Part shown: positions 1,140-23,023 of the stretch, piece by piece
Numbering within the stretch: the stretch's first letter is position 1
Layout of the letters: each line of letters starts with the position of its first letter
DNA from: an uncultured virus (IMG/VR IMGVR_UViG_3300043119_000141)
Taxonomy: Duplodnaviria; Heunggongvirae; Uroviricota; Caudoviricetes
Strand: one strand, 5' to 3'
IMG/VR virus record: IMGVR_UViG_3300043119_000141
Length of the DNA: 36,441 bases
The notes under the pieces: generated by a model
The model's input: the letters and a program-made list of their open reading frames with translations, nothing else
Told to the model about the DNA's origin: nothing
Database searches by the model: none
Position numbers and translations under genes: made by a program

Positions 1140-1142
1140 GTT

Positions 1143-1819: not shown

Positions 1820-1827
1820 GTCAGTCC

Positions 1828-2361: not shown

Positions 2362-2388
2362 TTTGATTTACTTTCCATAGAAAGATTA

Positions 2389-2437
2389 CAGCACTGTCTC
2401 TATGGCGTCCGCCCGTGAGCCATACGGGTCAGTGCTG
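2389..2437 (-). ncRNA. Structured leader with pseudoknot, candidate Mu-gpT-DE-like RNA motif
   Basis: P1 CAGCACUG/CAGUGCUG; P2 CCCGU/ACGGG; loop AUGGC can pair with downstream GCCAU. Lies downstream of a Mu-gpT-like capsid gene. The family assignment is from memory, not searched. Confidence 0.55.
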
Positions 2438-2448
2438 ATGAAGGCTCC

Positions 2449-2485
2449 TATAGATAATTACCCATATTGAAGCCTTTATACGCCC
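2449..2485 (-). promoter_or_regulatory. Putative phage late promoter
   Basis: GGGCG-N16-TGGGTAATT-ATC-TATA on the - strand; one of 7 copies. Confidence 0.75.
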
Positions 2486-3001: not shown

Positions 3002-3079
3002 TGATGTGTCCTTGTATGACTAAAAGATGAGGTAGTTTGTGATACAAGCACAAACAGGGCCGCTAAACCTTTTCCCTCT
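3002..3079 (-). ncRNA. Structured 5' leader of the HNH gene (hairpin plus SD-overlapping pseudoknot)
   Basis: Homologous to 31235-31316 with compensatory changes; see findings. Confidence 0.65.
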
Positions 3080-3116
3080 TATACATAATAACACACTTCC
3101 ACAAAGAAAAACGCCC
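3080..3116 (-). promoter_or_regulatory. Putative phage late promoter
   Basis: GGGCG-N16-TGTGTTATT-ATG-TATA; the GGGCG lies within the capsid terminator stem. Confidence 0.7.
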
Positions 3117-3137
3117 CTCCTTTTCAGGAGAGGCGTT
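3103..3137 (-). terminator. Rho-independent terminator after the major capsid gene
   Basis: - strand AACGCCTCTCCT-GAAA-AGGAGGGGCGTT followed by TTTCTTT. Confidence 0.85.
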
Positions 3138-3173
3138 CAGTACTAAGTTTCTTTACACTTAGTTTATCGACTT

Positions 3174-4091
3174 TTACAAGCCGATGGTGCCATACATATT
3201 CCTTGGATCATGCCATCCTGTAGCATAACGCTCAGAGGCTTTATAACGCATGGAATCTGTTTCAAAGTCCCCTTCACTAGAACGCTCGAGTGGGCGACGC
3301 ATCACCAACATCAAGCCATTCTCAGCGTCGGTTTGAACAAACCAAGCCTTGCTTGAAGACAAACGAGTCACCACGTGGGCGCCGTTTGGCAACATGCCAG
3401 TGGACTTGATAGGGTTCAAATCGTTGTCAGCGCCACCGGAACGCAGGACAGACTTCAAGATAACTTCTGCTTGGAATTCCAAGGCAGGAGGTACCACGAG
3501 TTGCTCCGCTTTCAGGCGAATACGCTTACCGTTGTTGTCCACTGCAGAACGGATCTGAATCAACATCTGTTCAACAGAAGTTTGAGACAAAGATGCCGCT
3601 GTAGACAACTGGTTGCTGAAGGTACGACCTTGGGAGATTGGGTGGTCGCTTGCGATCAATGTTTTACCGTCGCCACCGACATAGCCGGCAGTGAACGCAA
3701 AGTTCAACAAGTTAGCACACAAAGTCTCTTTTGTCTCGATCATGGACTGAGCCAAGTGCTTCGAGAAAGTCGAGCCGATACGGATGTGATCGCCGTCTTC
3801 CATCAAGACTTTGGTCATGGCGTATGCCAAACCATAGATCTTGTAGATGAAGCGGGTGATGAACAAAGTACCACCTTGATCATACGAGACGGGTGTACCG
3901 TCAGGCATCTCAGGGGCTGTGTTCATGCCGAACAACATCACTTCTTCGTGATAGTTACGGGGAATGCCGGTGATCTGGGTTACGAAACCCTTCCACTCGT
4001 CATCACGTTGTTGGTATACACCATCAAAGACTTCATTGAGGATAGGTTCGACTACCGCTCTAAAGTCCGTACTGCGCATTGGGGTTGCCAT
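3174..4091 (-). CDS. Major capsid protein (Mu gpT-like, HK97 fold)
   Basis: 305 aa with GGDGKTLIASDHP, LVVPPALEFQA..IL, LSSSKAWF and ERYATGWHDPR motifs; strong AAGGA SD; followed by a terminator. Confidence 0.9.
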   Translation of the reverse strand: MATPMRSTDFRAVVEPILNEVFDGVYQQRDDEWKGFVTQITGIPRNYHEEVMLFGMNTAPEMPDGTPVSYDQGGTLFITRFIYKIYGLAYAMTKVLMEDGDHIRIGSTFSKHLAQSMIETKETLCANLLNFAFTAGYVGGDGKTLIASDHPISQGRTFSNQLSTAASLSQTSVEQMLIQIRSAVDNNGKRIRLKAEQLVVPPALEFQAEVILKSVLRSGGADNDLNPIKSTGMLPNGAHVVTRLSSSKAWFVQTDAENGLMLVMRRPLERSSEGDFETDSMRYKASERYATGWHDPRNMYGTIGL

Positions 4092-4111
4092 GTGCTACTT
4101 CCTTTCTTTAG

Positions 4112-4711
4112 TTATTCTACGTTAGCGGCAACGAACACGTCGTTAGCGAGCTTGACTTGCACAACTGTTGCTGTATCACCCCAAGCATTATTGATTTCAC
4201 GGCCGAGACCTGTGACTTGCATTTGTGCTTGTGTGCCGACAGCTACTGCTGTAGGATCCAACGCGGCAGTTGAGGTGCCCAGACCACCGTTGCCGATGAT
4301 TTGACCAGATGTCACTGCTGTGAAGTTGAATTCTTGGCCGACTTGTGTGTTGGCGATCGAGCCGTTGGCTTGAACTTCATACACAATTTCGGGGTCCATG
4401 AAAATCCACATCACGACGTCGGTGGCTGTACCCAAAGCTGGGCCAAACCATTTGCTGACCGTGCGGCGGCCAGATGCGTCGGTGTATTCAACACCGGCAA
4501 ACACGCCAGCCAAACGCTTGTTTGCTGTGGGTGTGTTGCTTGCTACTACGAGAGTAGATACGCCTGCAGTCGTTGCTTCATCGAGAGAGACAGGGGTACC
4601 GCTGTAGAATACTGCACTGGTGTCATAGGCACCGGTGAAATTCAACGAACGGATAATGCCGCTAGGATGATATACGGGCTTCAGGCCAAAAGGAGCATAA
4701 GTTGCGCTCAT
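4112..4711 (-). CDS. Putative head structural/decoration protein
   Basis: N-terminal APFGLKPV, A/G/T/V-rich, immediately upstream of the major capsid gene. Confidence 0.7.
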   Translation of the reverse strand: MSATYAPFGLKPVYHPSGIIRSLNFTGAYDTSAVFYSGTPVSLDEATTAGVSTLVVASNTPTANKRLAGVFAGVEYTDASGRRTVSKWFGPALGTATDVVMWIFMDPEIVYEVQANGSIANTQVGQEFNFTAVTSGQIIGNGGLGTSTAALDPTAVAVGTQAQMQVTGLGREINNAWGDTATVVQVKLANDVFVAANVE

Positions 4712-4732
4712 TGTTTTGGTTCCTTAAAGTTG

Positions 4733-5290
4733 TTAATTAAACCGCAAATGGTTTGCGGCTCTGTGTGCATCTTTTTCCATCTCCAAGAGGCCACCTTCCA
4801 GAATAGAGCGTCCACCCTTACCACCTTCAGCCTGTGAACGCACCGTCGCAGTAATATTGCGCTGGTGTTCCAAAGGATCATCGTGGTGAAGCATTTTTGC
4901 CACTTCCTGATAAATGTCATCCGGGATCTTGAATAAGATCATCTCATTACAAGATATACAACCTTCAAACTTGCCCGAGCTCATCTTGCCTAAGTGTTCA
5001 AAGCCTTTTCCTAATTCAGCGGCTTTCACTGGCTCATAACCCAACGCGATGCGTTTGTCGATTGAATCATACTGGTTTGTCGTTGACAGCCAGCAGAGGT
5101 GCATACCGGGCAATAACCCACCCGGCACGTCCGGCAGTGCGTTGTTGGACCATTTGTCCCGAAAAGCCTCCAGCCTTTCACGCCTCACTGCTTCATCTGG
5201 CGAAGACACTTCGTTCCTCGCCTTCAGTTCATCAACACGTCCTTGCAGACGGTCGTCTAAATCTCGTGTAATTCGATTGTTAGCCATCAT
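4733..5290 (-). CDS. Phage head-module hypothetical protein
   Basis: 185-aa ORF between scaffold and capsid genes (LP...GMHLCWL...GYEPVKA). Confidence 0.7.
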   Translation of the reverse strand: MMANNRITRDLDDRLQGRVDELKARNEVSSPDEAVRRERLEAFRDKWSNNALPDVPGGLLPGMHLCWLSTTNQYDSIDKRIALGYEPVKAAELGKGFEHLGKMSSGKFEGCISCNEMILFKIPDDIYQEVAKMLHHDDPLEHQRNITATVRSQAEGGKGGRSILEGGLLEMEKDAHRAANHLRFN

Positions 5291-5297
5291 TTACCCC

Positions 5298-6320
5298 TTA
5301 TTTCGTTACTCGGTTCTTACGGTCAAACTCAGCGTAGTTGCGGATCGCTTTGGCTCGCTTGGATGGGTCGTCCCACATACCAGCGTCTTTAAGCGCCTGC
5401 ACACGTTCGCGGCTCAGTGTGAATGTGTTCTTAGCGATTGCGCTACCACTCACGTCTGTGCGGCCACTTGATGTGCCTCCGCGGCGGTTACGGTCGTTGC
5501 CGCTACCACTGCTTACTTTGCTCGTATACCGATGAGGTAAACGTTCTTTCAATCGATTGTCCAGCTCGTCCCAGTACTCTGGGTCTGCTGGGTCCCAACC
5601 TTCACTGGCCAGTGCATTGTCAATCACCTTGGCAATGCGGCTGTCCGTATCCTTACCGCTGGGGTCATACCAACGGTTTGAGTTCAGCCATTCTGTGGCG
5701 TTTTGCTGAACAACCTCAGTGACCGGACTCGGTACGTTGTTACGGGGCTGTTTGGCCTCTTCCAACTGTTTCTGTTTGAGCAGTTGAACCTGCGCCAACT
5801 TGTTCTTGGCGTTGTAGAACTGCTCCATGTATTCCATCTGCTCGGCCACGTTGCCCGCCTGCGCGGCCTGCGTTGCCTTCATCTTCGCATACTCAACGCG
5901 CGTTGTCTCGTCCTCTAACAAGCGGTCGATCTGAGCAAACTGGAATCCTACTGCGGCGTTTTCCACTTGGGCCAGTCGGCGCTCAAGGGTCTCGTTGCGG
6001 CGTTCCAGTGCACTGATCTTATGCTTTGCACTTGCCTCGCGTTGCTTAGTGAGGTCCTTCTTCAGGCGGCGCTCTTCTCGACGCGCGGCTCGCAGGGCCT
6101 CTCTATCTTCATCCGTTTCGTCCGCATCATTAGTCTCGCCACCTTCAGCAAAACCTTCTGCGTCGTCGTCGTCTTTATTGTCGTCGGCTTCTTTGTTCTC
6201 TTCTTCACCCTCGAAAGGGTCTTTGTGATCTTCCATGGCCGCTAACACGGTGCCATCATCACGCTCTTTAATTGCAATGTCCTCGCCGGACTGCATCTCA
6301 GCTTTTTGCACTGATTTCAT
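5298..6320 (-). CDS. Putative scaffolding protein
   Basis: Acidic N-terminus, long coiled coil, and position between portal/GroES and the capsid gene. Confidence 0.65.
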   Translation of the reverse strand: MKSVQKAEMQSGEDIAIKERDDGTVLAAMEDHKDPFEGEEENKEADDNKDDDDAEGFAEGGETNDADETDEDREALRAARREERRLKKDLTKQREASAKHKISALERRNETLERRLAQVENAAVGFQFAQIDRLLEDETTRVEYAKMKATQAAQAGNVAEQMEYMEQFYNAKNKLAQVQLLKQKQLEEAKQPRNNVPSPVTEVVQQNATEWLNSNRWYDPSGKDTDSRIAKVIDNALASEGWDPADPEYWDELDNRLKERLPHRYTSKVSSGSGNDRNRRGGTSSGRTDVSGSAIAKNTFTLSRERVQALKDAGMWDDPSKRAKAIRNYAEFDRKNRVTK

Positions 6321-6331
6321 AACGAAATCCC

Positions 6332-6760
6332 TTATTCAACAAATGCGGGGAACATGGTCCTCGCTGTTTCAAAACTATCAATTGCACAAATGACCTCACG
6401 GTCCTGCAAAATGATAAACACTACCTCGCCGTCACCGTGCGGTACCGCCCAGCGGTCGCCACCGTACTTGATCACGCGAACTAGATCTCCCGGCTCTGCC
6501 CAAGGGCCTTCTGGCCATGGTTGCAAAGTGTTAAGATCTTTATAAGCCAGTGGACCTACACCAACGACCTTTGCAATTACCTCGTTCCATTTCTCTGTGG
6601 CTTTTGTATCATTAACTAAAATGATGCCGCCCTTTGAAACGTCCTTGGCTTTTCGCAATTGAACGATGATTCGGTTGCCTTTCAGCTTCACACCCGGATC
6701 AACAACCGGGAAACAGTCGGATTCGCTCCGGCCGTCGACCTGATATTTACTCTCAGTCAT
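6332..6760 (-). CDS. groES: Co-chaperonin GroES-like protein
   Basis: GNRIIVQ...SKGGIIL...AKVVGVGP...GDLV...KYGG...IILQDREVI matches the Cpn10 pattern. Confidence 0.9.
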   Translation of the reverse strand: MTESKYQVDGRSESDCFPVVDPGVKLKGNRIIVQLRKAKDVSKGGIILVNDTKATEKWNEVIAKVVGVGPLAYKDLNTLQPWPEGPWAEPGDLVRVIKYGGDRWAVPHGDGEVVFIILQDREVICAIDSFETARTMFPAFVE

Positions 6761-6942
6761 TCAGATTCCTCGTCCTCTTTCAGGACACTGTTGATAATAT
6801 CCAAAGCCTCTTTCAGACCTTGGCCTCTTCCTACTAGCTGGTTGTATTTGTCCCAGCTTTCGACTCCATTCAAAACGGCGCCTTGCAAAAACTCGACCGC
6901 CTCTTTGATCTTGAAGATCGATTCGTACAACGGGTCTTTCAT
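6757..6942 (-). CDS. Small hypothetical protein
   Basis: AAGGAG SD; GVESWDKYNQLVGRGQGL; ATGA overlap with groES. Confidence 0.75.
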   Translation of the reverse strand: MKDPLYESIFKIKEAVEFLQGAVLNGVESWDKYNQLVGRGQGLKEALDIINSVLKEDEESE

Positions 6943-6955
6943 CAAAAACCCTCCT

Positions 6956-6992
6956 TATAACTAAGTACACACAATTGTGTGTACTTCCGCCC
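6956..6992 (-). promoter_or_regulatory. Putative phage late promoter overlapped by a 24-bp palindrome
   Basis: GGGCG-N16-TGTGTACTT-AGT-TATA; perfect palindrome AAGTACACACAATTGTGTGTACTT at 6963-6986. Confidence 0.75.
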
Positions 6993-6996
6993 TACA

Positions 6997-7173
6997 TTAT
7001 TTTTTAAGGCCCTTGCTGTTCACTGGGGGCACTTGGTACAGAGGTGCCTTGGGTGCTTGCTTAGAGCCAGATGGGCCTTTTTCTACAGGTGACCCGGGGC
7101 CGCCAGCGTAGCCGGGCTTGCCTGTGATCATGTAGCTTTTACGAAAACCCATGTTGTCGTTTGATGTTGCCAT
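6997..7173 (-). CDS. 58-aa hypothetical protein (not in ORF track)
   Basis: MATSNDNMGFRKSYMITGKPGYAGGPG...GLKK*; AGGAG SD; TAATG overlap with the portal stop. Confidence 0.7.
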   Translation of the reverse strand: MATSNDNMGFRKSYMITGKPGYAGGPGSPVEKGPSGSKQAPKAPLYQVPPVNSKGLKK

Positions 7174-9920
7174 TATTGTTCTCCTGTTGGGGTTTGTTGT
7201 TGTTGCATTAACTGCTGTTGTGCTTGCATCGCCGCATCGTGTGCACGTTGCTCTTCTGCTTGCGCTTGATCCAGTCCATGCTTACGCAGGTCTGCGTACG
7301 CTTGGCGCTCTGCCTCCAACGCAGTCATCTCTTGTGAGTGTTGCTGTTGAACCTGTTGCGCGCTCAGTGCTTGGTCTGCCGCGATCATTGCCACGCGCTC
7401 TTTGGAGGCGTTGTTGATGTCCGCAATAGCCACCTTGGCCGCGTTGTCCTGATCGGCCAACTGTTGCTGTAGTCCCAGCTTGGCTTGGATCTCTGCCAGC
7501 TTGGCCTGCATGTCGCGCACCTTGTCCGCCATCTCGGCTTCCATCTTCTCGCGCTCCAGTTGGAACTTGGCCTGCGCCTCTTCTGTCTTGCGCTTTGTCT
7601 CTGCCATCTGAGTCTGGATGAGTGCCTGTGACGTGGGGTCTGCCATCGCCGCGGACTGCATCTGGTTCTGTTTGGACTGTTGCATCTGTTGCACCAACTG
7701 CTGGATGATCGGGTTGATGCCCTCGAACGTCTTGGTTGCGTCCTGATTGACCAACTGGGCCGCCATGGCCAGCGCCTCTTGGGCGGCTTGGTCCAGCTTG
7801 CGCTCTTCGTTCAACTTGAACGCGTCCTCACCACCAGCGGCATGAGACACGTAGTTGCGCATTGACTGCAGGTAGTGCAGTGTCAGGTGTTGCTTGATGT
7901 GCTCCAACATCAAAGGCGTCACGCCGGGGCCAATGAGTGGGTTGCCACCGTACGCTGGGTCCATCATGTAAGCCAAGTGCACCTTCAAGTGGTCGATGTG
8001 GCTCTGGTCTGGGAACGCGGCCGCCGCGTGGCCCATTGTCATCTGAACGTTCTCTAGCGCGGGGTTGCTCTCTGTCGAGCCTTTGGGGTTTGGCATGACC
8101 TTGTCAATGTCAGGCACCTTCATCAGCTTCATCACGCGCATGTGCGCCTCGCGCACGTCGTACATCTGCGGCGCCTTCTCTGCCAACTGCAACACCAACT
8201 GCGCCTGTGTAAGACGCTGTGTTTCGCTGAAGATGTTAGGGTCAGAGATTGGGCTGACGTCTGAGTTGTCCTCAAAGTCTTCTACCGCGATCTCAGCGCC
8301 GGACTGGTTGTCCATGTCTTCCAAGTACCAGCAGTTCAGACGAGACAGAACCTGCAAGCTCTTGGCCTGACTGCGGTGCAGGCGGGCGTGAATGCTGGAG
8401 AACACCTTCGAGCCTTGCTCGATCATGGCCTGTGTTGTGCCAACGGGGGCGTTGCTGTTCATGTCAGCAATACGGCCCTCGCTTGTCTTCACAACACCTT
8501 TAGCGGCGTCAGTGAGCCAGCCTAACAGGTTGTACAGGACAGAGGACGGCGGGTTGAACGGCAGTGGCATTGCCAACTTGCGCACGTCGTCCACACCGGG
8601 CGAACCCTCGATCTCAACGACCTGAGTTGGCTCAATGCGGTCAGACTGTCCACCAATACGACCGCCCTTGAGTTTGAGCATGGTCTGGCTGTTGTTCACG
8701 TGCGCCGCGTCCATCAGGGCGCGCAGTGAACCAGTCAAGGCCGCTGAGAGGCCACCAATAAGGTGTGGCATGCCGATAGCATAAGCACCGCGCCAAGGAA
8801 TAAACTTGTACTCGATCATCCAGTCGAGCTTGCGCATGCGTGTGTCGCCTGACTGCCAGTTACGGTACAGACCAACCACCTTGCCTGTGATCTCGTCCAC
8901 CGTCATGATGTACGGTGCGCGCTTACCTTCTGTCAGTGGGTCGTCTTCCAAACGCAGGAACGTTGTGATCTCGTACACACGGCGCAAACCGTCCACGTTC
9001 TTCGTTGGCTCTTCCTTGCCCTCGATCTTGTTGTTCGCCTTCTCAGACTTGGTCTGGTTGTCGGGGTTCAACTCGGCTGTAAAGATCTCAATGTCACGGT
9101 ACTCACCAGACTCGACACGTTGCTTGAACATGTCCTCTGTGATGTCTTGCTGTTCTGTGATCCGCGCGGCAGAATAAAAATTGGTAGACGCAAACGGCAA
9201 CAGCACGTTGTCAATCGGGATCCACTCGGGCACTGGGCGGTTGAGGTCCTTGTCAAAGCGCCACTTGAGGTACTGTGAGCCGCCAAGGGGAAGCTGTGTG
9301 AACAACTGCTCCATCTCGTCACGGTACTCTTCAATCTGCTCAGTCAACTGCCAGTTCAGGAAGTTGGCTTTACGCTGTGCCGTGTCAATTCTATCTTGGT
9401 TGGCTTTGCCCTTGATGTACGTACGCACCAAGCCGTCAGCAGGCAACAACTCTTTGGACGCGTTAGCCGCAAAGTCAACGCAGGCTTCTGCCATGATGGG
9501 GTGCACCACCTTGCTGGCGCCTTGGAACGTCGCGCCACCGGGGGCGTCGTTGCCCATGCCAGTGCGGCGGATGCCTTCTTCGTACTGCTTGTCACGCTGT
9601 TTGCGAGACTCACGGTCCACTTCAATTAAGTCAAGGTACTCAAACGCAAGTGTGTCCAGCGTGCCGTCGTCCAACTCTTCAGCCAAGTTGGCGTAGAACT
9701 CTGGGTTCTCTGACGGCTTTTCTGTCTCCATCATGTTGACCACAACGGAGCCATCCTCCATCTCAATGATCTCAGACTCTACGTCGTCAATGTCCAGATC
9801 CAGCGCCTCGGCCAGATCTTGGACTTCCTTTTCCGTGTCTACTTCTTTTGTCGTCTCGTCTTCTGCGTAAGACAACGCGGACAGGTTACCGCCCTGCTGG
9901 AGTGGAATGATTGGTTGCAT
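7173..9920 (-). CDS. Portal protein
   Basis: 915 aa, near terL; VHPIMAEACVDF.A, NFLNWQLTE, APVGTTQAMIEQG..VFSSIHARLH motifs; long Q-rich coiled-coil C-terminus. Confidence 0.85.
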   Translation of the reverse strand: MQPIIPLQQGGNLSALSYAEDETTKEVDTEKEVQDLAEALDLDIDDVESEIIEMEDGSVVVNMMETEKPSENPEFYANLAEELDDGTLDTLAFEYLDLIEVDRESRKQRDKQYEEGIRRTGMGNDAPGGATFQGASKVVHPIMAEACVDFAANASKELLPADGLVRTYIKGKANQDRIDTAQRKANFLNWQLTEQIEEYRDEMEQLFTQLPLGGSQYLKWRFDKDLNRPVPEWIPIDNVLLPFASTNFYSAARITEQQDITEDMFKQRVESGEYRDIEIFTAELNPDNQTKSEKANNKIEGKEEPTKNVDGLRRVYEITTFLRLEDDPLTEGKRAPYIMTVDEITGKVVGLYRNWQSGDTRMRKLDWMIEYKFIPWRGAYAIGMPHLIGGLSAALTGSLRALMDAAHVNNSQTMLKLKGGRIGGQSDRIEPTQVVEIEGSPGVDDVRKLAMPLPFNPPSSVLYNLLGWLTDAAKGVVKTSEGRIADMNSNAPVGTTQAMIEQGSKVFSSIHARLHRSQAKSLQVLSRLNCWYLEDMDNQSGAEIAVEDFEDNSDVSPISDPNIFSETQRLTQAQLVLQLAEKAPQMYDVREAHMRVMKLMKVPDIDKVMPNPKGSTESNPALENVQMTMGHAAAAFPDQSHIDHLKVHLAYMMDPAYGGNPLIGPGVTPLMLEHIKQHLTLHYLQSMRNYVSHAAGGEDAFKLNEERKLDQAAQEALAMAAQLVNQDATKTFEGINPIIQQLVQQMQQSKQNQMQSAAMADPTSQALIQTQMAETKRKTEEAQAKFQLEREKMEAEMADKVRDMQAKLAEIQAKLGLQQQLADQDNAAKVAIADINNASKERVAMIAADQALSAQQVQQQHSQEMTALEAERQAYADLRKHGLDQAQAEEQRAHDAAMQAQQQLMQQQQTPTGEQ

Positions 9921-11572
9921 TATTGGTTAAAGCCTTTGTATGCTTTACGGATAGGGCCTACTAACGGTAGTGCACCTAACGAACTCATTGCCGCGTCTCC
10001 GTATTTGCCTTGTCTAAAATTTTGTCCTGCTTCAGCGGCAAACATAGGTGCTTGCATCATGGCAATAGGAGGGCTGGCAAAAGCGGCAACGTCCATTGCG
10101 CCCCAGCCTCCGGGAATGTTGCTTGATGGGCCACCAACGATTGTGTCTGCCGCACGTCGTGCAATAGGGCGACGAATGCCTACTTTTTCAAGCATGTCGC
10201 TACCCAATGAGGAAATACGCTCACGAGGTGTTGGATCATACTTAGACATTTTTGGTTCTTTTCTCGCTTCTGCATTTTCCATGGAACGCATCAGAACTTC
10301 GTCAACCGAGTTTTCGTACCCGGTGCCGCCGCTACGGATGTACGCTGTCAACTCTTCCAGTGTGGGGGTCTGTGTGTATCCGCCGCTGTTGTAGCCGCGG
10401 ACCATCATCTCGGCCTGCATGTCGCGGGGAGAGTGCATCATGCCACCCTCTGCCTTGCCTTGAACGGCACGGCGGCGCTTGTCCATCAGCTCCTCCATCT
10501 CCCAGTCCTTGGCGAACGGTGCACGCTGTGCCGGTTCAGTGTCCAGCAAGTAGTCACGCTGGTTCTTAGGGAACCAATCAGACGGGTGCTTAGTCACCAC
10601 CGACTCAGGCAGACCGGAGGCACGGGCCTCGTCGCGCCACGACTGCATTTCCGCAGAGGGGCGGCCGCCGCCACCGGGTTGTGATGGGCGTTGAGCGATT
10701 GGGTTTGTGCCAGTGTAGTTGTGGCGCATAGGATTGATCATCGCGTTGATCGCGTTGACAATGTCTTCTTGGTCTGGGTCGATGCCGCGGGCACGGAAGT
10801 CCGCAACCACCTTGTCCACCAACGCACCGTGCTTACCCAACAGCATCTCGTCTGTCAGTTTGTCCAGTCCGGGACCTTCTAGTTGCGCGGCACGTTCGGC
10901 AAACGGCGCACTCGCGCTGGTCATCTGCGGAATGTCGCCCTCAGTCGCACGCAGGGCACCAAGGCCACTCATTGCGTCGTCTGTTACGTCCAAGGCCTCT
11001 TCACCCAATTGCTGGCGCGTTGCCAACTCTTCTGTTGAGGGGGTGAATGACTTGTTCCATGTGCGGTTACCAGTGCGGCCTGTGTTGGCCATCGACATAA
11101 ACTCGTCTTCAGGGAACGCATTCTGAAACTGACCCTTGGGGTAGTTGCGCGCCTTCATGTTGACGGGTGACATGTCAAACTGACTTGGTACACCTTGGAA
11201 TGGGCCAATGGTTTCGCGTGTTGTCACACCCTTGGCACGCTCTGGCGTGATTGTTTGGCCTGCGGGGCTTGTTGCCGCAGGGTAAGGACGGCCTGATGCG
11301 TCCACAAACTGGTCTGCAAACGGTGTTTGCTGTTTCATGCGGGCCATTGTCTCGGCCGGCTTGGCTGAAGGGGCCGACAAAGACCGAATGTGGTCTTCCA
11401 GTGCCTTGACCTCTTCTGGTGACGGGGGTTTACCCACCGCCTTCGTGTATTTACGAATCGCGTCTTGGATTCGGCTTGCAAACTGACCAACAACGTCGCC
11501 ACCCTTACCGTAATGCGGCAGGTTAGCCTGTTCGTACATCATCTGTGTGGGGGTTTTGATTGGATTGATCAT
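9920..11572 (-). CDS. Hypothetical 550-aa protein (possibly an internal/ejected virion protein)
   Basis: Between terL and portal; has its own late promoter; recurring (Y/K)xxGG motifs and a G/A-rich C-terminus. Confidence 0.65.
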   Translation of the reverse strand: MINPIKTPTQMMYEQANLPHYGKGGDVVGQFASRIQDAIRKYTKAVGKPPSPEEVKALEDHIRSLSAPSAKPAETMARMKQQTPFADQFVDASGRPYPAATSPAGQTITPERAKGVTTRETIGPFQGVPSQFDMSPVNMKARNYPKGQFQNAFPEDEFMSMANTGRTGNRTWNKSFTPSTEELATRQQLGEEALDVTDDAMSGLGALRATEGDIPQMTSASAPFAERAAQLEGPGLDKLTDEMLLGKHGALVDKVVADFRARGIDPDQEDIVNAINAMINPMRHNYTGTNPIAQRPSQPGGGGRPSAEMQSWRDEARASGLPESVVTKHPSDWFPKNQRDYLLDTEPAQRAPFAKDWEMEELMDKRRRAVQGKAEGGMMHSPRDMQAEMMVRGYNSGGYTQTPTLEELTAYIRSGGTGYENSVDEVLMRSMENAEARKEPKMSKYDPTPRERISSLGSDMLEKVGIRRPIARRAADTIVGGPSSNIPGGWGAMDVAAFASPPIAMMQAPMFAAEAGQNFRQGKYGDAAMSSLGALPLVGPIRKAYKGFNQ

Positions 11573-11596
11573 GTTTTTGAAATTATTGGGACCTTC

Positions 11597-11633
11597 TATA
11601 ACGAATCACCCACAAATGAGGGTGTTTACGCCC
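11597..11633 (-). promoter_or_regulatory. Putative phage late promoter
   Basis: GGGCG-N16-TGGGTGATT-CGT-TATA. Confidence 0.75.
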
Positions 11634-11638
11634 GAAAA

Positions 11639-13084
11639 TTACGCGGCGTAGGGGTTGTATGCCCTGTTTCGCGCAATATCGTCTGAATATTCATAATTTC
11701 TCGGCGGCAGTGGGTCCAACTGGAGCCATCCTGCGTCGCGCAAGACCCTCAAGGCCTGTGACAGTGCGTCAACGTAGTCGTCGTGCCCCTTTGCTTCCGG
11801 AAAAGAACACACCTGCCTGATGAAACGTTTGGCCCACGGGGCTATCTCGCCCGGATTTTCAGGGTCCTCGGGGATAAACACCTTGCCCTTGGCAATTAGC
11901 GGGGCCACAATGTTCATCCTCTGCACCTTGTCCGCTTTTCCGGGGTTGTATGACCGCACCGGCAGGTGTCCAGCCTGCAATTCTTGAATGAGTGAGATAC
12001 CTGCCGACTTATCTTCCATCAAAATCAGGTCCGTTTTCTTGCCCTTTGCGAACGTGTTGTCCGATCCATACACCACTTCCTTAAAATCGTCCTTGATCTT
12101 GCGCCGTAACTCCGGATACGACAGGTGCTCGTCCCATGCGTCCAGCAAAATGCAACACGTGCCGTGGTCCTCCCTGTCGAACACACCGAGCGCAACACAC
12201 GCTGTCGGGTCGTTGTGTGTCTTTTCGCTGGTGGCTGGGTCGTATGACACCAGCACGTACTCCAAGGTCGGGGTTGGCATGTGAGCTGGCCAGTTCTTGA
12301 ACCACTTGCGCTTGACAATACCCGCGTTCTCAGGGTCCAAGATCTCGCCATAGATCTCCTGCTTGCCTAAGTCCGTGCCCTCATATGCTTCCAATTGCTT
12401 AAAAAACGTACTTGAGAGGTTCGCCCTGTTGTCATAACTCGACGCGCGCGACACGTACACGTCGCCGCCGACCTTGCCCTCGTTCAGGTCCGTGATCAGC
12501 TCCAACGGTTTGGGCGTGGTGGTGATGATCGACTGCACCCGGGCTATGCGCGGGTCTGTCAGTCGCAACGTGAACTGTATCTGGTCGTACGCGTCGTCAA
12601 TGTACTCGAACGCGCACAGCTCGTCCGCCCACATGCCGTGCCACTGCGTACCCCGGAAGCGCTCTGGCTCAGACGCCGGGATGCCGCGGATCATGCTTCC
12701 ATTCTTCAGCGTCAACTCAAACAGCGACTTGTTGTAGTCCTTGATCAGTGACGTGGGGATGATGTTCAGTAGCCCCGAGTCACCCTCAAAGCACGTCGCC
12801 CTGATGTCGTTTGATGTTGGCGCTGTCACCAACCAGCGCGTCTTGTCGTAGATCGCCGCCCTCAGTCCTAGCCAGTTGGACGCTGTGTGCGTCTTGCCCG
12901 AGCCCCGGCCGGCTAGGAGCAAGAACGTGTCGTACTCCCCATCCTCTGGCTCCCTTTGGTGTGGTAGGGCCGTTAGCTCCCACCTCACCCGCCACAGGGC
13001 CAGATCCAGTTGCTCCTTGGGCCAGCCCTTGTTCTGTTCGGCAAAAGCCTTGAGCAGTTTTTGTTGCGCGTCGTTCATAGGCAT
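11639..13084 (-). CDS. terL: Terminase large subunit
   Basis: Walker A AGRGSGKT, Walker B WADE, coupling motif TTTP, nuclease motifs YDPA and HDDYVDALSQAL. Confidence 0.95.
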   Translation of the reverse strand: MPMNDAQQKLLKAFAEQNKGWPKEQLDLALWRVRWELTALPHQREPEDGEYDTFLLLAGRGSGKTHTASNWLGLRAAIYDKTRWLVTAPTSNDIRATCFEGDSGLLNIIPTSLIKDYNKSLFELTLKNGSMIRGIPASEPERFRGTQWHGMWADELCAFEYIDDAYDQIQFTLRLTDPRIARVQSIITTTPKPLELITDLNEGKVGGDVYVSRASSYDNRANLSSTFFKQLEAYEGTDLGKQEIYGEILDPENAGIVKRKWFKNWPAHMPTPTLEYVLVSYDPATSEKTHNDPTACVALGVFDREDHGTCCILLDAWDEHLSYPELRRKIKDDFKEVVYGSDNTFAKGKKTDLILMEDKSAGISLIQELQAGHLPVRSYNPGKADKVQRMNIVAPLIAKGKVFIPEDPENPGEIAPWAKRFIRQVCSFPEAKGHDDYVDALSQALRVLRDAGWLQLDPLPPRNYEYSDDIARNRAYNPYAA

Positions 13085-13947
13085 ACTGTCAGGTATCCTT
13101 CACTCACTAGGAATGTGTTGTTGGGGTCTTCGGTCTTGATGTGCACACAGGGCCGAATATCCACGTTGGTAACGTGGGTAATCCTGCGCATCTCCTCGTA
13201 CTGAGGCCGGCGCACAGGCTTTTGGTTTTCGACCAGCATCAGGTTCGTCCTGAATACCATGTGGAACTGGTGGTGGTGCTGTACGATCTCTGTCCTGATT
13301 CCCAAGCTTTCCGTCAAATTGTGAATTGACCTGAAAAGCCGGAAACTCTTAACGTTGAACCTGAACTTGGCCGAGACTTGGCTGTGGCACTTTGGCCTTG
13401 AGGCACATACCCCCCGGAGTATGGCCAAACGCTGTTCAAACGACGAGAACAGGTACTCTTCTGGAATGTGGTCTGGTATTTTGCCGTAACTCTCGATCAG
13501 CTTGGATGTGATGAGGGTGCGCTTGTCCCTGTGCGGGTCACCTATCCACATCCCTAAGTCGTAGGGGTGAATAGGTAGCGGCTTGGCTGTTGGCTTGATT
13601 GGGTAGCACGTTGGCATCCTACACCACCCAGTCTCAATGTTGGATAGGTTCTGTGGCGCGTAGATAGGCAGGATGTACTCTTCGCGGTTTGGGCGCTTAC
13701 GTCCCCACTTGGCTAGTGTGAAGAAAATATCCTTGTCGTACACAGGAATGCCGGTGCGGCTATCCACTACCAACGTCAAGCCGTCCTTGGTCCAGATCTT
13801 ATGACACACCACCGGCGTGTACTCCTGAACAGAAACAACTTTGACTGGCAGGCCCGTGTAATCAAAAACCTCATCCCCCGGGCTGATAAACCGTGCTAAC
13901 TGCCATCCGGCAGTGGTAGGGATGGGAGTTCGTGCATCGATTCCCAT
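13075..13947 (-). CDS. Free-standing intein-derived Hint/LAGLIDADG-like protein, splicing residues lost
   Basis: Block A-like GIDARTPIPTTAGW...GDEVF; block C PYDLGMWIGD; block E IPEEYLFSSFEQRLAILRG; block H LTESLGI; blocks F/G CVHIKTEDPNNTFLVSEGYLTV. No C1 nucleophile, no terminal HN, no exteins. Confidence 0.8.
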   Translation of the reverse strand: MGIDARTPIPTTAGWQLARFISPGDEVFDYTGLPVKVVSVQEYTPVVCHKIWTKDGLTLVVDSRTGIPVYDKDIFFTLAKWGRKRPNREEYILPIYAPQNLSNIETGWCRMPTCYPIKPTAKPLPIHPYDLGMWIGDPHRDKRTLITSKLIESYGKIPDHIPEEYLFSSFEQRLAILRGVCASRPKCHSQVSAKFRFNVKSFRLFRSIHNLTESLGIRTEIVQHHHQFHMVFRTNLMLVENQKPVRRPQYEEMRRITHVTNVDIRPCVHIKTEDPNNTFLVSEGYLTVCL

Positions 13948-13950
13948 GTC

Positions 13951-13987
13951 TAACCCTAATTACCCACGAGAACGGGGTCTGGCGCCC
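13951..13987 (-). promoter_or_regulatory. Putative phage late promoter of the packaging operon (near-leaderless transcript)
   Basis: GGGCG-N16-TGGGTAATT-AGG-GTTA, then GAC and the ATG at 13947; no SD. Confidence 0.7.
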
Positions 13988-14027
13988 CTGTTCCAGTGGT
14001 GGGGGGTATATTGGCCTAAAAGGCCAC

Positions 14028-14156
<129 letters not shown>

Positions 14157-14230
14157 CTAAACTAAAGTACTCATTTTTAAATTGTAATTTTGACGGCGCG
14201 ACACAGAAACCCTACTAGCAACAGGGTCTA

Positions 14231-14248
14231 TATACCCCCGGGGGTATA
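14231..14248. repeat. 18-bp perfect palindrome
   Basis: TATACCCCCGGGGGTATA. Confidence 0.9.
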
Positions 14249-14410
14249 CGTAGAAAAAAAAAGATCGTTTTTGTACATAAAAATAAACAAATATGCGTTT
14301 TTGTACAAATATATGTGAATTTGTGAAAAAACTTGCTTGCTCATGGGGCCCCCCGCCCGGCTAGTCCGATGGGACCCTAATTGGGGTGTCGCTAAAAAAC
14401 AACGCCCCCT

Positions 14411-14625
14411 AGCAAGTACCGTGCCAGCTTGGACAGCATACCCATACTGGTAGGGGTACCCTGCATACCCTACTGGGTATAGTACTCACTCGGCGCGATA
14501 CCCTACCCAGTACAGTATGCCGGCCAGTCTGGCACGGATCTTGCATGGCTAGCAAGTATCATGCCAACGTGGCATGGCACGCATCTTGCTAGTGAGGCAC
14601 GCAGGCCAAGCAAGCTTCATGCCAA
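14411..14625. promoter_or_regulatory. Array of five sigma54 (RpoN) -24/-12 sites in alternating orientation
   Basis: TGGCAYG-N4-TTGC-type sites with exact GG-N10-GC spacing at 14411-27(-), 14529-45(+), 14551-67(-), 14574-90(+) and 14609-25(-). Confidence 0.85.
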
Positions 14626-14697
14626 CGTGGCCGGCGCAATCATCATACCATAGCACCAATGCGCACGCGAGCCCAATGTGGTGGTCTAGCGTCTTAC

Positions 14698-14741
14698 TCT
14701 AGTTGGCCAACTAGATGTTGTTGAACTACTAGTTCGTCAAC
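14698..14741. repeat. Tandem palindromes upstream of the first early gene
   Basis: Perfect TCTAGTTGGCCAACTAGA (14698-14715) plus an imperfect inverted repeat at 14717-14741. Confidence 0.8.
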
Positions 14742-14805
14742 TGGTGATTGTTAACCACCCCGAGTTGACCATAGTAGTATCACCAACCAAACAGGAGAAC
14801 AGACC

Positions 14806-15057
14806 ATGACAGACTACAAAGCAGTGATTGCATCCATTCAATACAGCATCCATTGTGATGCTGACTGGGTCTACCGGATCCGCGACGAAGAGGGCATTGT
14901 GTGGTTTTCCTCTGACTATGAAATGGACGCAGTGTCCGAGTACTACGACAAGTACATCACCCAAGAGCAGGCCGAAGCACTCAAGCTTGAGGCCGACATT
15001 TGGAACGACGAGCAATACGAGCAAGCGGCCAACCGCCTACTGTCTTACACAGCATGA
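14806..15057 (+). CDS. Early acidic hypothetical protein
   Basis: Follows repeat copy 1 and an AGGAG SD. Confidence 0.8.
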   Translation: MTDYKAVIASIQYSIHCDADWVYRIRDEEGIVWFSSDYEMDAVSEYYDKYITQEQAEALKLEADIWNDEQYEQAANRLLSYTA

Positions 15058-15097
15058 TTGATGCGTGATGCCCTGCGTGCAGGGCATTGCAGATCAA
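15058..15097 (+). repeat. Conserved intergenic hairpin (further copies at 15463-15506, 15812-15852, 16505-16542)
   Basis: TTGAT-GC-GTGATGCCCTG-CGTG-CAGGGCATTGC-AG-ATCAA; compensatory C-G to G-C swap in the 15463 copy. Confidence 0.9.
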
Positions 15098-15146
15098 CCA
15101 CCCCGAGTTGACCATAGTAGTATCACCAACCAAACAGGAGCACACC

Positions 15147-15464
15147 ATGCAAACACTTACAGAAGCACGTCACACAATGGACACTGAGAACGTGTTCACA
15201 ATCAACCTGCCACGTACCCGCGGCATCTACAGCGAGGCAAGCTTGTACAAAGACTACAAGACCAACGGCGACGGCATTTACTGGGCCCTGCAACACTCAG
15301 CCTGCCTCAAAGGCCACTACAGCGAGGCAGACATTGCCCATCGTGATCGTTTGAACAACATGAAGCCACTAGAGAACGGCGACATTGTGCTGATCAATGG
15401 TGAACAGTACAAGACACGCATTCTTGGCAATTTCAGCGACTGCGCCATTTTCGACAAGCTTTAA
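15147..15464 (+). CDS. Early hypothetical protein
   Basis: Start reassigned to the ATG after the repeat SD; the ORF-track start lies inside the repeat. Confidence 0.8.
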   Translation: MQTLTEARHTMDTENVFTINLPRTRGIYSEASLYKDYKTNGDGIYWALQHSACLKGHYSEADIAHRDRLNNMKPLENGDIVLINGEQYKTRILGNFSDCAIFDKL

Positions 15465-15553
15465 TTGATGCGTGATGGCCTGCGTGCAGGCCATTGCAGA
15501 TCAATTCACCCCGAGTTGACCATAGTAGTATCAGCAACCAAAAGGAGCATTCC

Positions 15554-15811
15554 ATGATCACACTTTTCAAGACAATCTACAAGCCTGCCACTGACACAGA
15601 GGCCTGCTACTTTTTAGTCCAACGCATGGACGACGGTAGCAAGCCCAAGCGCTACTCATACGAGTACAGCGCAAAGAATGCCGCACGTGCCGCGGCATTC
15701 CTGTACTCTTCAGACACATCACCCGACTGGATGCCAAACGACGAGGACGGCCTCGAGTATGTAGGCGCAGAGGCCGACGGCCTGACCTGCTACTACGCAG
15801 TGAGCAAATGA
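15554..15811 (+). CDS. Early hypothetical protein
   Basis: ATG after the repeat SD. Confidence 0.8.
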   Translation: MITLFKTIYKPATDTEACYFLVQRMDDGSKPKRYSYEYSAKNAARAAAFLYSSDTSPDWMPNDEDGLEYVGAEADGLTCYYAVSK

Positions 15812-15900
15812 TTGATGCGTGATGCCCTGCGGGTCAGGGCATTGCAGATCAACCACCCCGAGTTGACCATAGTAGTATCACCAACCAACAGGAGCAAACC

Positions 15901-16113
15901 ATGGACAAACTGTACGCATTCCAACGTCGCATGCACTCAATGTGCCACTATTACCCACGCGAGTATGGTGTCAGCATTAACTGGAACCCTGAGACCCGCA
16001 AGTGGGAAAGCTTGACGTTCAAAATGGACAGCAATCACAAGGCCGAATTAGAGGCCTTGTTGCAGGGCACCGATGGCCGCATCACCCGCATCGACGGTTT
16101 TTTCACAGACTAA
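15901..16113 (+). CDS. Early hypothetical protein
   Basis: ATG after the repeat SD. Confidence 0.8.
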   Translation: MDKLYAFQRRMHSMCHYYPREYGVSINWNPETRKWESLTFKMDSNHKAELEALLQGTDGRITRIDGFFTD

Positions 16114-16126
16114 AAAGGAGCACACC

Positions 16127-16507
16127 ATGATCCGATTCAGCAAGACCATTCCCGACGGCCGCCACCCAACAGAGGCGCGCGACTGTACCGTGCGCGCATT
16201 GGCGCACGTGCTCGACATGCCGTATGAAGAGGCCCACGCGACCATGGCCGCATTCGGCCGTAAGCCCCGACGTGGTGTGCCGCGCACCGAGGTGATCGCG
16301 GCCTACGCAAGCAAGGGCCTGACATACATCAGGCGCAACGACCGGCCGACACTGGCCCAGTTTATGCGCGAGGACGGCGCCAAGCACGAGCGCCTAGTGA
16401 TCAACAAGACCGGCCACGTGTTCACAGTGATCAACGGCACGCAGTTGGACACGGCCAAGTGTGGACCACGCACGCGAGTGCATGGTTATTACGTACCGGC
16501 AAAATGA
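16127..16507 (+). CDS. Early protein with a papain-like Cys/His/Asp pattern
   Basis: AAGGAG SD; DCTVRALA...GHVFTVING..LDT. Confidence 0.6.
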   Translation: MIRFSKTIPDGRHPTEARDCTVRALAHVLDMPYEEAHATMAAFGRKPRRGVPRTEVIAAYASKGLTYIRRNDRPTLAQFMREDGAKHERLVINKTGHVFTVINGTQLDTAKCGPRTRVHGYYVPAK

Positions 16508-16592
16508 TGCGTGATGCCCTGCGTGCAGGGCATTGCAGATCAACCACCCCGAGTTGACCATAGTAGTACACCCAACCAAACAGGAGCACACC

Positions 16593-16751
16593 ATGCAATT
16601 AGAGTACACACAGGACTGGCAAACACAGACCCGCGGCACAAACGACCAAGAGTATCAGATCTACCTGTACTGCGCCAACGACGGCAAGGGCGGAGACATT
16701 ACCAACAACGGCAAACCTTTAAAAACCTACAACGAATGGATCGCATCATGA
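16593..16751 (+). CDS. Early hypothetical protein (52 aa)
   Basis: ATG after the repeat SD. Confidence 0.75.
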   Translation: MQLEYTQDWQTQTRGTNDQEYQIYLYCANDGKGGDITNNGKPLKTYNEWIAS

Positions 16752-16933
16752 AAACAGTCACAATCACACAACAACAGTGGTCAGAATTAAACGTCAACCT
16801 GCTGTTGCAAATGGCAGAGTACGTGCACTCAAACCACAGCGAAGACCAATCACGCGAAGAGATGGTCAACGAGCGCAATGACCTGAACAACGCGCTGTAC
16901 CAGTACAAGAAAATTAAAGAGGCATTCCAATGA
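16748..16933 (+). CDS. Early hypothetical protein
   Basis: ATGA overlap with the upstream ORF; MKTVTITQQQW... Confidence 0.65.
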   Translation: MKTVTITQQQWSELNVNLLLQMAEYVHSNHSEDQSREEMVNERNDLNNALYQYKKIKEAFQ

Positions 16934-17025
16934 AATACATTCGTGAACTAATCGAGGCCATGATACTGGCCGCCATCATTGGTGGCCCGTTTTTCTACTA
17001 CCTACTCTACGTGATGAAGCCATGA
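16930..17025 (+). CDS. 31-aa membrane peptide
   Basis: MKYIRELIEAMILAAIIGGPFFYYLLYVMKP; GAGG SD; ATGA overlaps at both ends. Confidence 0.6.
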   Translation: MKYIRELIEAMILAAIIGGPFFYYLLYVMKP

Positions 17026-22110: not shown

Positions 22111-22502
22111 CCAAAGACGAAGCGTTGAAACTGACAGAGATACTAAACCACGCGATATGGGACAGCGTGCAGGTTGTCATACAGCCGGAACCGCAACAGC
22201 CTAAGTGCAACCCCCACCCCAAGGCACCACACGGGCTTGTGAGGGGCGCAAGCTACAGTGCCGCGCGCTACGTGTGCGAGTGCGAAATGTGGGACCCCTA
22301 CGAGGCCGGCAGGGAGGCAGGCGTGCAGGCCATGTTGGACTACGACATGCCCACACCCGAGCCTGTGCCGTACACACCACTCTCAACCAGTGAGATTGTC
22401 GAATGTGCTGTGAAGGTGTGGAGGTTTGATGCCAACGACGTGAGTGCGAACACAATCAAATTTGCGCGTGATATTGAGCGCTTAACCTTGGAACGACAAT
22501 GA
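22107..22502 (+). CDS. Hypothetical protein
   Basis: ATGA overlaps; CNPHPKAPHG...YVCEC. Confidence 0.7.
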   Translation: MTKDEALKLTEILNHAIWDSVQVVIQPEPQQPKCNPHPKAPHGLVRGASYSAARYVCECEMWDPYEAGREAGVQAMLDYDMPTPEPVPYTPLSTSEIVECAVKVWRFDANDVSANTIKFARDIERLTLERQ

Positions 22503-23023
22503 GACGCCAACTACTGACAGCCGAACAAGAGATTGAACTACACCACCGGATTGTGCAGGGTGACGAGGAGGCCCACGAGGCCTTGGTGGAGGCCAACATG
22601 GGACTGGTGGTGTACATTGTGCAGAAGTTGCCGCAGTGGGACATGGCGGGCAACATGACAAGGGACGACCTACTGCAAGAAGGTTACATGGCCCTGATGA
22701 AGGCGGCGCACAGGTGGAAGCCGCAGGGAAGGTTTGCAAGCTACGCGCGCACACTGATCAAGAGCCAAGTGCTCAGAGCCATTGAGAACAAGGGCCTGAT
22801 GATCCACGTGCCCGTGGCGGTGCAGGAGGACCTGCGCAAGATCAAGCGGGTGGAGACGGAGTTGGCCCAAGTGTTGGGCAGGGACCCGACCACCAAAGAG
22901 GTGGCCAAGATCACAGGCCTGACAGAAAGCAGGGTCCGTGATAGACTGGTGGTGAGCCAGAGACAACCGGTCTCATTGGACGCGTTCAAGAAGGACCAAG
23001 TAACGGAAGAAGAATATGATTGA
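22499..23023 (+). CDS. Sigma70-family sigma factor, regions 1.2-3 only (no region 4)
   Basis: LLTAEQEIEL (1.2), LVEANMGLVV (2.1), DLLQEGYMALMKA (2.2), RFASYA (2.3), LGRDPTTKEVA (3), PVSLD, then a stop 12 codons later. Confidence 0.9.
   Translation: MRRQLLTAEQEIELHHRIVQGDEEAHEALVEANMGLVVYIVQKLPQWDMAGNMTRDDLLQEGYMALMKAAHRWKPQGRFASYARTLIKSQVLRAIENKGLMIHVPVAVQEDLRKIKRVETELAQVLGRDPTTKEVAKITGLTESRVRDRLVVSQRQPVSLDAFKKDQVTEEEYD

Follow-up and report, generated by a model that had tools for sequence, protein, structure and literature searches.

The window analysed here is a 36,441-nt stretch from an uncultured virus (Caudoviricetes; IMG/VR record IMGVR_UViG_3300043119_000141), and our subject is a cluster of matches to the sigma-54 promoter consensus within it. 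The window represents part of a tailed phage. A leftward arm (3-13947) encodes tail fibre, capsid, portal and a two-part large terminase, and a rightward arm from 14806 encodes small early open reading frames (ORFs), a sigma-70-family factor, a primase-helicase, an SNF2 helicase, an exonuclease, a single-stranded DNA-binding protein and a ribonucleotide reductase. The cluster lies inside the single 858-nt gap at which the leftward packaging and structural genes and the rightward early and replication genes diverge. From left to right, this gap holds a poly-A palindrome, an 18-bp palindrome, a G/C-block element, site 1, a set of ATACCC-N4-GGGTAT repeats, sites 2-5, a possible sixth site, ATGCGCACGCGAG and TTGACCATAGT. 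An earlier reading made from the letters alone (the sequence-only reading) had reported five near-consensus sigma54 sites in alternating orientation ahead of the early genes, with sites 2 and 3 face to face and 5 bp apart. Its coordinates and strands proved exact, the facing sites are separated by positions 14546-14550, and the first plus-strand ORF does follow the cluster. The sites and the genes on either side of them are as follows:

13075..13947 (-): first leftward-arm gene, an N-terminal terminase-large-subunit-like ORF (PHROG terminase matches, E 5e-11)
14411..14426 (-): site 1, TGGCACGGTACTTGCT, an exact 12/12 match; leftward -24/-12 match adjoining the conserved left element
14530..14545 (+): site 2, TGGCACGGATCTTGCA, an exact match; left half of face-to-face pair 1
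14551..14566 (-): site 3, TGGCATGATACTTGCT, an exact match; right half of pair 1
14575..14590 (+): site 4, TGGCACGCATCTTGCT, an exact match; 8 nt from site 3, back to back
14609..14624 (-): site 5, TGGCATGAAGCTTGCT, an exact match; 18 nt from site 4
14635..14650 (-): possible sixth site, TGGTATGATGATTGCG, degenerate (10/12 positions) with GG-N10-GC kept
14806..15057 (+): first early-arm ORF, 83 aa, with no family match and no homologue in any fetched relative

The G that follows TGGCAY is present in all five sites, so that each agrees with the 12-position consensus TGGCAYG-N4-TTGCW throughout, and GG and GC lie exactly 10 nt apart within TGGCAC-N5-TTGCW, as in a sigma-54 -24/-12 site. Five exact matches to TGGCAYG-N4-TTGCW in the window compare with 0.05 expected, and no exact match was found anywhere in the window beyond the cluster. 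None of 100 dinucleotide-preserving shuffles gave five matches, the maximum being one. Allowing a single mismatch returned nine matches across the window versus 4.07 expected; these include the five exact sites, and the other four are at chance level.

Relatives were retrieved using the terminase N-part (13075..13947) as an anchor, which yielded 32 loci in IMG/VR (84-100% identity). Fifteen of these have 655 nt or more of upstream sequence, and every one has exact sites in the same place (four to eight sites in 14 of them and one in the truncated L003); the other 17, in which no site was found, stop within 570 nt upstream, short of the array. The enrichment that the sequence-only reading had proposed to look for, here and at the same spot in relatives, is thus present in both. 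In a 53-kb relative that is 82% complete (G002), all eight exact sites fall in one cluster, with zero elsewhere. Among these close relatives the consensus positions are fixed while the number of sites, the spacers and the gaps vary. A leftward counterpart of site 1 is found at the same junction in L002, L012, L014, L030, L100 and L060, and other relatives have additional ATACCC repeats in its position; the equivalent of site 2 is the first site of the block in most close relatives.

The pattern extends to a wider family of 80 contigs collected by terminase alignment (74-97% identity), 41 of which reach at least 2300 nt upstream. Many members of the family come from metagenomes of freshwater and soil. 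In these 41, the 62.7 kb of control zone holds 65 exact sites and the remaining 331.9 kb holds one; 65 of the 93 control-zone sites with at least 11/12 matches are perfect. All nine contigs with terminase identity of at least 87% carry three or more exact sites each, and among the 32 contigs at 75-79% identity there is at least one site in nine and none in 23. In the lineages without sigma-54 sites, the slot between two conserved border elements of the gap is filled by other repeat families. Sister lineages (L083, L085, L088, L096 and others) have two to five TGCACC-N5-GGTGCA palindromes there, which fit the NtrC enhancer consensus TGCACC(A/T)4TGGTGCA listed in Table 1 of PMC4987338. Such NtrC-like boxes number 44 in control zones versus two elsewhere and are present in 19 of the 41 contigs. 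Only three of these contigs (L070, L101 and L110) also have exact sigma-54 sites, and the control zones of NtrC-box contigs that lack an exact site have no sigma-54 copy with at least 11/12 matches either. Some relatives also contain palindromes that resemble Fur boxes, for example TGAGAATGATTCTCA (14 in zones versus 0 elsewhere in the 41 contigs). Judged by these matches, the control region of the family gathers look-alikes of host-factor sites.

One relative carries an additional site of a different kind: a lone TGGCACAGTACTTGCA at L100:2855-2870 (-), about 65 nt ahead of the first early ATG and apart from the L100 array. Upstream of it lie an AT-rich stretch and two TGCACCATTAATGTG boxes. 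In its sequence, this lone site seems to be a textbook-looking sigma-54 promoter. Elements resembling other promoters are also found between array and early genes, including TGnTATAAT in L066 and TTGACA-17-TACAGT in L072.

The arrays have a consistent geometry, which we measured on 110 clustered family sites with at least 11/12 matches. Adjacent convergent sites are separated by 1-6 nt in 35 of 40 cases and adjacent divergent sites by 6-11 nt in 23 of 32, and orientation alternates in 106 of 114 steps. In 16 of 24 family arrays a rightward site comes first and a leftward site last, and none of the 24 has the outward-facing layout of divergent promoters. The unit of the array is therefore a face-to-face pair whose -12 elements almost touch, such that every predicted start site falls inside the partner site. 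This geometry is a conserved design and not an accident.

We then seeded a census of IMG/VR with the face-to-face pair pattern (gap 1-6 nt), which was found in at least 120 stretches. In cellular genomes the same pattern occurred in only nine stretches across 596 Gb and 185,579 species; these are mostly short contigs of metagenome-assembled genomes, and one is identical to a viral contig. The face-to-face pair is thus essentially a phage feature, close to a viral signature. Among the 80 IMG/VR loci that were fetched, 15 share at least 150 nt with the family of the window and about 60 have no nucleotide similarity to it, with a GC content of 35-66%. Many of the unrelated loci have alternating arrays of 5-17 sites. 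Among these loci is a second large family, whose arrays are flanked by genes of its own; the genes next to its arrays and those next to the arrays of the window's family have no gene family in common, except for spurious ORFs that run across the arrays. Based on crude ORF calls around 62 unrelated arrays, both flanks could be assigned in 45, and by junction we counted 24 divergent arrays, 11 convergent arrays and 14 between co-directional genes. NtrC enhancers were rejected as a general partner of the arrays: we found one NtrC-like box in the 62 unrelated loci and none in the reversed control. The unrelated L121 family has a promoter-like TTGACT-17-TATACT between its array and its early genes. 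Separately, an unrelated IMG/VR contig of 36.6 kb bears an array at either end (L139 and L144); the two ends overlap by about 440 nt at 94% identity, with the array in the terminal overlap and a consensus sigma-70 promoter after it.

From their sequence, the five sites and the weak sixth are probably docking sites for host sigma-54 RNA polymerase. Loss of GG-N10-GC spacing in relatives had been set beforehand as the outcome that would tell against this view; instead, across 81 family sequences (698 kb), TGGCAY and TTGCW are 5 nt apart in 106 cases versus 1-7 at each other spacing from 0 to 12. The spacing is held across sites that are otherwise diverse, comprising 49 distinct 16-mers with 26 distinct spacers. 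In 19 array copies with one or two mismatches, positions 1, 7, 12 and 16 account for 25 of 28 mismatches, and G3, T13, G14 and C15 are never changed. Sigma-54 sites tolerate change at -26, -20, -15 and -11 and are conserved on their GG and TGC cores, and the variation among array copies matches this profile. The motif is also unchanged across family branches that have unrelated early genes and differing repeats in the arms of the palindrome, and its constancy there and in unrelated phages points to a host factor rather than a lineage-specific phage protein. Many leftward family sites also fit TGGCACnnTTnTTGC, given as the motif bound by the holoenzyme alone in PMC8743547.

The sequence-only reading had also noted that no enhancer-binding protein is visible, and this holds more widely. 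The bacterial enhancer-binding protein (bEBP) domain PF00158 (Sigma54_activat) is absent from the 59 window ORFs scanned, from five family contigs up to 82% complete and from five unrelated array-bearing contigs, one of them 95% complete. The nearest record, G001, has no bEBP or sigma-54 either, and no Sigma54_DBD was found in the five contigs searched. No NtrC-type box is present in the slot of the window, whose sequence is identical to that of L001. The sigma-70-family factor of the phage (22499-23023) was rejected as the reader of the sites, given that all eight exact sites of G002 lie in one cluster and none precedes another operon. A reading of the pairs as hairpins, cruciforms or symmetric dimer sites was also rejected: the identity between partner spacers is 0.28 and 0.25, compared to 0.31 ± 0.05 at random, which argues that neither a hairpin nor a symmetric dimer site is under selection. 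This result, like the fixed spacing, the placement of mismatches and the constancy across branches, holds irrespective of how we defined a site, and all four point to sigma-54. A host that is rpoN+ is a fair inference from the sites.

How the array acts is less certain, and we tentatively favour occupancy, in which the array would work mainly by capturing or titrating host sigma-54. Sigma-54 binds DNA tightly but, unlike other bacterial sigma factors, cannot start transcription alone, and natural sigma-54 promoters are rarely perfect. A face-to-face pair would probably have room for a single holoenzyme, facing either way, or for two molecules of free sigma-54; both this capacity and the steric argument follow from the footprint sizes of sigma-54 and its holoenzyme. 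Because the phage has no activator of its own and its clade no recognisable enhancer, the bound polymerase would mostly be a closed complex that does not fire. The array could in this way capture host sigma-54 and polymerase at the junction of the two gene arms, and it might also be a symmetric block to polymerases that cross this junction. As phage DNA copies rise, sigma-54 would be pulled off host promoters. We infer these steps of binding, non-firing and titration from dense, perfect, face-to-face sites with no activator and no common enhancer, which fit an element that holds sigma-54 or its holoenzyme. Other promoter-like elements between arrays and early genes (L066, L072 and the L121 family) also count in favour of occupancy, and arrays for either partner of one host pathway, sigma-54 or NtrC, are easier to explain by titration than by promoters. 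The stronger form of this idea, in which the array is a phage DNA sponge whose hundreds to thousands of perfect sites soak up a small sigma-54 pool, is rather doubtful. The number, density and perfection of the sites fit a titration array, which would be expected to have many high-affinity sites without an adjacent regulated gene and to affect the regulon of the titrated factor.

Several observations weigh against occupancy. The array occupies the position expected of a promoter, and 24 of the unrelated arrays with assigned flanks are likewise at divergent junctions. At least the L100 lineage, given its lone site, seems to transcribe with sigma-54, and a phage that does so would gain little from starving itself of this factor. 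The three family contigs that pair NtrC-like boxes with sigma-54 sites resemble an enhancer with its promoter. A sponge needs no particular orientation, yet alternation is strong, although duplication of the pair as a unit could produce it. The benefit to the phage is speculative, and we know of no precedent for a phage DNA decoy of a sigma factor.

These points lead to the rival explanations. It is quite possible that the sites are conditional crossed promoters, enhancer-dependent and fired by host bEBPs, which would act either in solution or while bound to enhancers not recognised as such (the ATACCC-N4-GGGTAT repeats, for instance). Transcription of the early arm would then start from the rightward sites, and that of the packaging arm or the origin region from the leftward ones, and firing in one direction would clear or block the other by transcriptional interference, tying the phage programme to host physiology. 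Such a role would suit an array in a divergent control region, the lone L100 promoter, the NtrC-like boxes beside sigma-54 sites in L070, L101, L110 and also L071, with Fur-like boxes near, and the result of a simple scan that detected no sigma-70 promoter between 14625 and 14805. There are also partial precedents. Pseudomonas phage YuA, described in PMC10914365 as lytic, without its own RNA polymerase and partly dependent on host sigma-54, has a sigma-54-like promoter that is supported there by a promoter trap and ONT-cappable-seq. It differs from the window phage in having no array (a single one-mismatch match in its whole genome, inside a gene) and is unrelated. The convergent pR/pL promoters of phage 186 give about sixfold interference, which according to PMC6593788 mainly removes sitting promoter complexes, stable closed complexes included. 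In geometry only, two opposed sites between divergent genes match a 186/P2-type switch: 186 pR/pL and P2 Pe/Pc also face each other between divergently arranged genes, with interference acting on sitting complexes (PMC6593788). The 186 and P2 promoters are, however, single sigma-70 pairs tens of bp apart whose direction is set by a repressor, and here the pairs are repeated, of sigma-54 type, 1-6 nt apart and with no known regulator. Crossed promoters must further be reconciled with the lack of a phage bEBP in the window, the family or the unrelated array contigs searched, and with the near absence of NtrC-type boxes (none in the window and one in the 62 unrelated loci). Each start site would lie within the neighbouring site, bacteria almost never build the face-to-face pair, and four to eight copies far exceed what a promoter needs. 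Lineages with NtrC boxes mostly lack a sigma-54 site (co-occurrence in 3 of 41 contigs), and leftward transcripts would have to pass the long palindrome, with its 37-nt T run, before reaching the terminase gene. The sequence-only reading had considered ordinary promoter use unlikely; the conserved face-to-face geometry, nearly exclusive to viruses, agrees with that view, and the L100 promoter and the YuA and 186 precedents soften it.

That a phage-encoded or other non-sigma-54 protein reads the sites, as operators, iterons or packaging sites, is improbable. The slot would then be a region of phage specificity for replication or regulation, and its repeats do differ by lineage (NtrC-like palindromes, GGTGCGGTGCAACAT repeats and GTGAGTACTCAC palindromes, among others), as those of iteron or operator regions do. 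It also adjoins the origin-like AT-rich palindrome and the terminase genes, and TGGCA-N7-TGC(CA) palindromes at the matching junction of Caulobacter phage RW could mark an older palindromic operator. Against this, identity to sigma-54 at 12 positions with invariant spacing is not expected of an unrelated protein, the variation follows sigma-54 tolerance, and the motif is constant over unrelated early genes and about 60 unrelated phage loci with GC of 35-66%. No gene family is common to the arrays of the window's family and the second large family, and pair gaps of 1-6 nt with asymmetric spacers (0.28 versus 0.31 at random) disfavour a rigid dimer site. Nor do the sites behave as iterons, as they alternate in orientation and keep a constant motif while arm repeats and early genes differ; the poly-A palindrome, with its own repeats unlike the sites, does fit an origin. 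A ratchet or anchor for DNA entry, or a protective cap at the genome end, is highly improbable. By analogy, it would suit RW, in which the junction of the arms is where a direct terminal repeat (about 2.9 kb) stops, 76 nt past the first leftward gene, and three of four distinct TGGCA-N7-TGC motifs lie 66-120 nt from that repeat end; two contigs of the window's family also end 11-24 nt past the right border element. The window and the 53-kb G002, though, run through the region without an end. Among 71 contigs cut upstream, only two end near the right element compared to 11 at an A/T homopolymer, where assemblies typically break. A search of RW that allowed one mismatch to the consensus found no site, and a closed complex does not translocate and hence cannot ratchet DNA. 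A fixed physical genome end at the array likewise finds no support, since contig ends gather at the poly-A run instead. Among the non-transcriptional uses that the sequence-only reading had listed, a decoy or occupancy role has become the leading explanation, and DNA entry and end protection have lost ground, with contigs running through the region.

On the subject of RW, its motifs (L038:8200-8363 and L249:2800-2900) are partly TGGCAC-N5-GTGCC palindromes. Both RW and the uncultured record MW202545 were rejected as bearers of an array, the latter having only scattered one-mismatch matches.

Comparison to other known systems sets the arrays apart. Enhancer-dependent sigma-54 promoters such as glnAp2, pspA and nifH have the same TGGCACG-N4-TTGCW and GG-N10-GC and are intergenic, near palindromic repeats. 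In contrast, the phage arrays have five to eight alternating sites 1-11 nt apart, with predicted starts inside the next site, and have no bEBP gene or assignable enhancer; their pair is nearly absent from the 185,579 cellular genomes. Bonocora et al. 2015 reportedly found widespread intragenic sigma-54 binding. Binding of the Escherichia coli sigma-54 holoenzyme without activation has been proposed in PMC8743547 to block other polymerases, and this proposal gives the occupancy explanation some footing. The repressive or non-productive sites of E. coli are single and chromosomal, whereas the phage arrays are multicopy on a replicating virus. The datA locus, which titrates DnaA, is a natural example of a decoy. 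Clusters of high-affinity sites that sequester a transcription factor are described as decoy arrays in PMC8599769, PMC3322331 and PMC7826281. The decoys compared here (synthetic ones and datA) concern neither a sigma factor nor a phage, and titration by the phage array would be a putative parallel to them. In the literature searched (titles and abstract starts), we found neither arrays of sigma-54 sites nor decoys for sigma factors described for phages, and YuA was the only case of phage use of sigma-54.

Overall, arrays of densely spaced, perfect sigma-54 sites are a feature of the central control region across an entire family of uncultured phages, and many unrelated phages likewise carry such arrays. 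Whichever mechanism holds, this cis-element recurs among phages and is specific to them. It indicates a connection between phages and host sigma-54 that has yet to be studied, and by its sequence the array would mark its bearers as phages of rpoN+ hosts. If a sponge does operate, it would shut off enhancer-dependent host responses, for example nitrogen-stress signalling and envelope-stress genes, and sister lineages would reach the same end using NtrC-box arrays. Titration of host transcription factors by cis-acting DNA would then be a general and so far undescribed strategy of phage takeover.

The remaining elements of the gap are listed here:

14028..14156: AT-rich palindrome with 53-nt arms (inverted repeat, 87% complementary) and a 37-nt poly-A core (14081-14117), flanked by inverted GGGTTTGCA repeats
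14231-14248: perfect 18-bp palindrome, TATACCCCCGGGGGTATA, with a GGGTAT motif in common with the repeats between sites 1 and 2 and the poly-A palindrome arms
14344..14410: G/C-block element, TGGGGCCCC..GGGACCC..GGGG..CCCCC, bounds the variable slot on its left and is found in every one of the 18 diverse family members in the alignment
14443..14523: ATACCC-N4-GGGTAT-type repeats, ATACCCTAC(N)GGGTAT(AGTA), direct and inverted, between sites 1 and 2
14659..14671: conserved element ATGCGCACGCGAG, right border of the variable slot
14765..14775 (+): conserved TTGACCATAGT, about 30-40 nt ahead of the first early ATG

The poly-A palindrome resembles a replication origin. An A/T-rich palindrome is retained in relatives, with arm repeats that are lineage-specific, and in metagenomes the palindrome is a frequent break point of contigs. 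A search of 13800-14900 against Rfam gave only sub-threshold matches to miRNA-type hairpins, located on this long palindrome. The two border elements are kept family-wide while the slot between them changes its repeats by lineage: 36 loci, representing 27 distinct regions, contain both ATGCGCACGCGAG and the left element, irrespective of the repeats in the slot. We considered the left G/C-block element as a structured RNA transcribed from the leftward sites and rejected this, having found no compensatory pair or change on either strand; because of this lack of compensatory pairs, a role at the level of DNA is more likely than one as an RNA. The ATACCCTAC-type repeats are present in close relatives in two to seven copies with a period of about 33 nt, and together with GGGTAT they look like enhancers or iterons. 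Because the arms of the poly-A palindrome contain GGGTAT as well, this motif is probably bound by a phage or host protein other than sigma-54. Lastly, TTGACCATAGT was recognised by eye, without statistics, in the window, L030, L053 (as a variant), L054, L056 and L084. Its carriers have different early genes and one of them has no sigma-54 sites, and it is possibly an early promoter of another type.

With regard to the wider phage, no DNA similarity to isolated phages was found for 13000-17000 (distant mode) or 1-25000 (near mode). The nearest isolates by portal protein are Caulobacter phages RW, KcrB, RLK and GB2A (49%), and the portal of MW202545 has 52% identity to that of the window. G001 is a 14.7-kb fragment that is identical across the left arm. 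We saw neither lysogeny genes in the window nor an identifiable repressor among its ORFs. The large terminase is split over two overlapping ORFs, 11639-13084 and 13075-13947 (-), with no small-terminase ORF evident upstream within the window; in RW the large terminase is likewise in two parts, there split by a methyltransferase gene. The sigma-70-family protein (22499-23023, +) has 174 aa, with regions 1.2, 2 and 3 detected and region 4 not, and is followed by a 91-aa ORF without a family match. ORFs of endonuclease VII or HNH type are spread over both arms (2486-3001 (-), 29086-29568 (+) and 31317-31796 (+)) and may be homing endonucleases. A 76-aa ORF at 31995-32225 (+) has an Acb2/Tad1 hairpin domain (E 1.3e-9) and is a candidate anti-CBASS or anti-Thoeris protein that would act as a sponge for immune signals made of cyclic nucleotides, and an ORF at 6332-6760 (-), amid the head genes, encodes a GroES-like co-chaperonin (Cpn10, E 4.6e-5).

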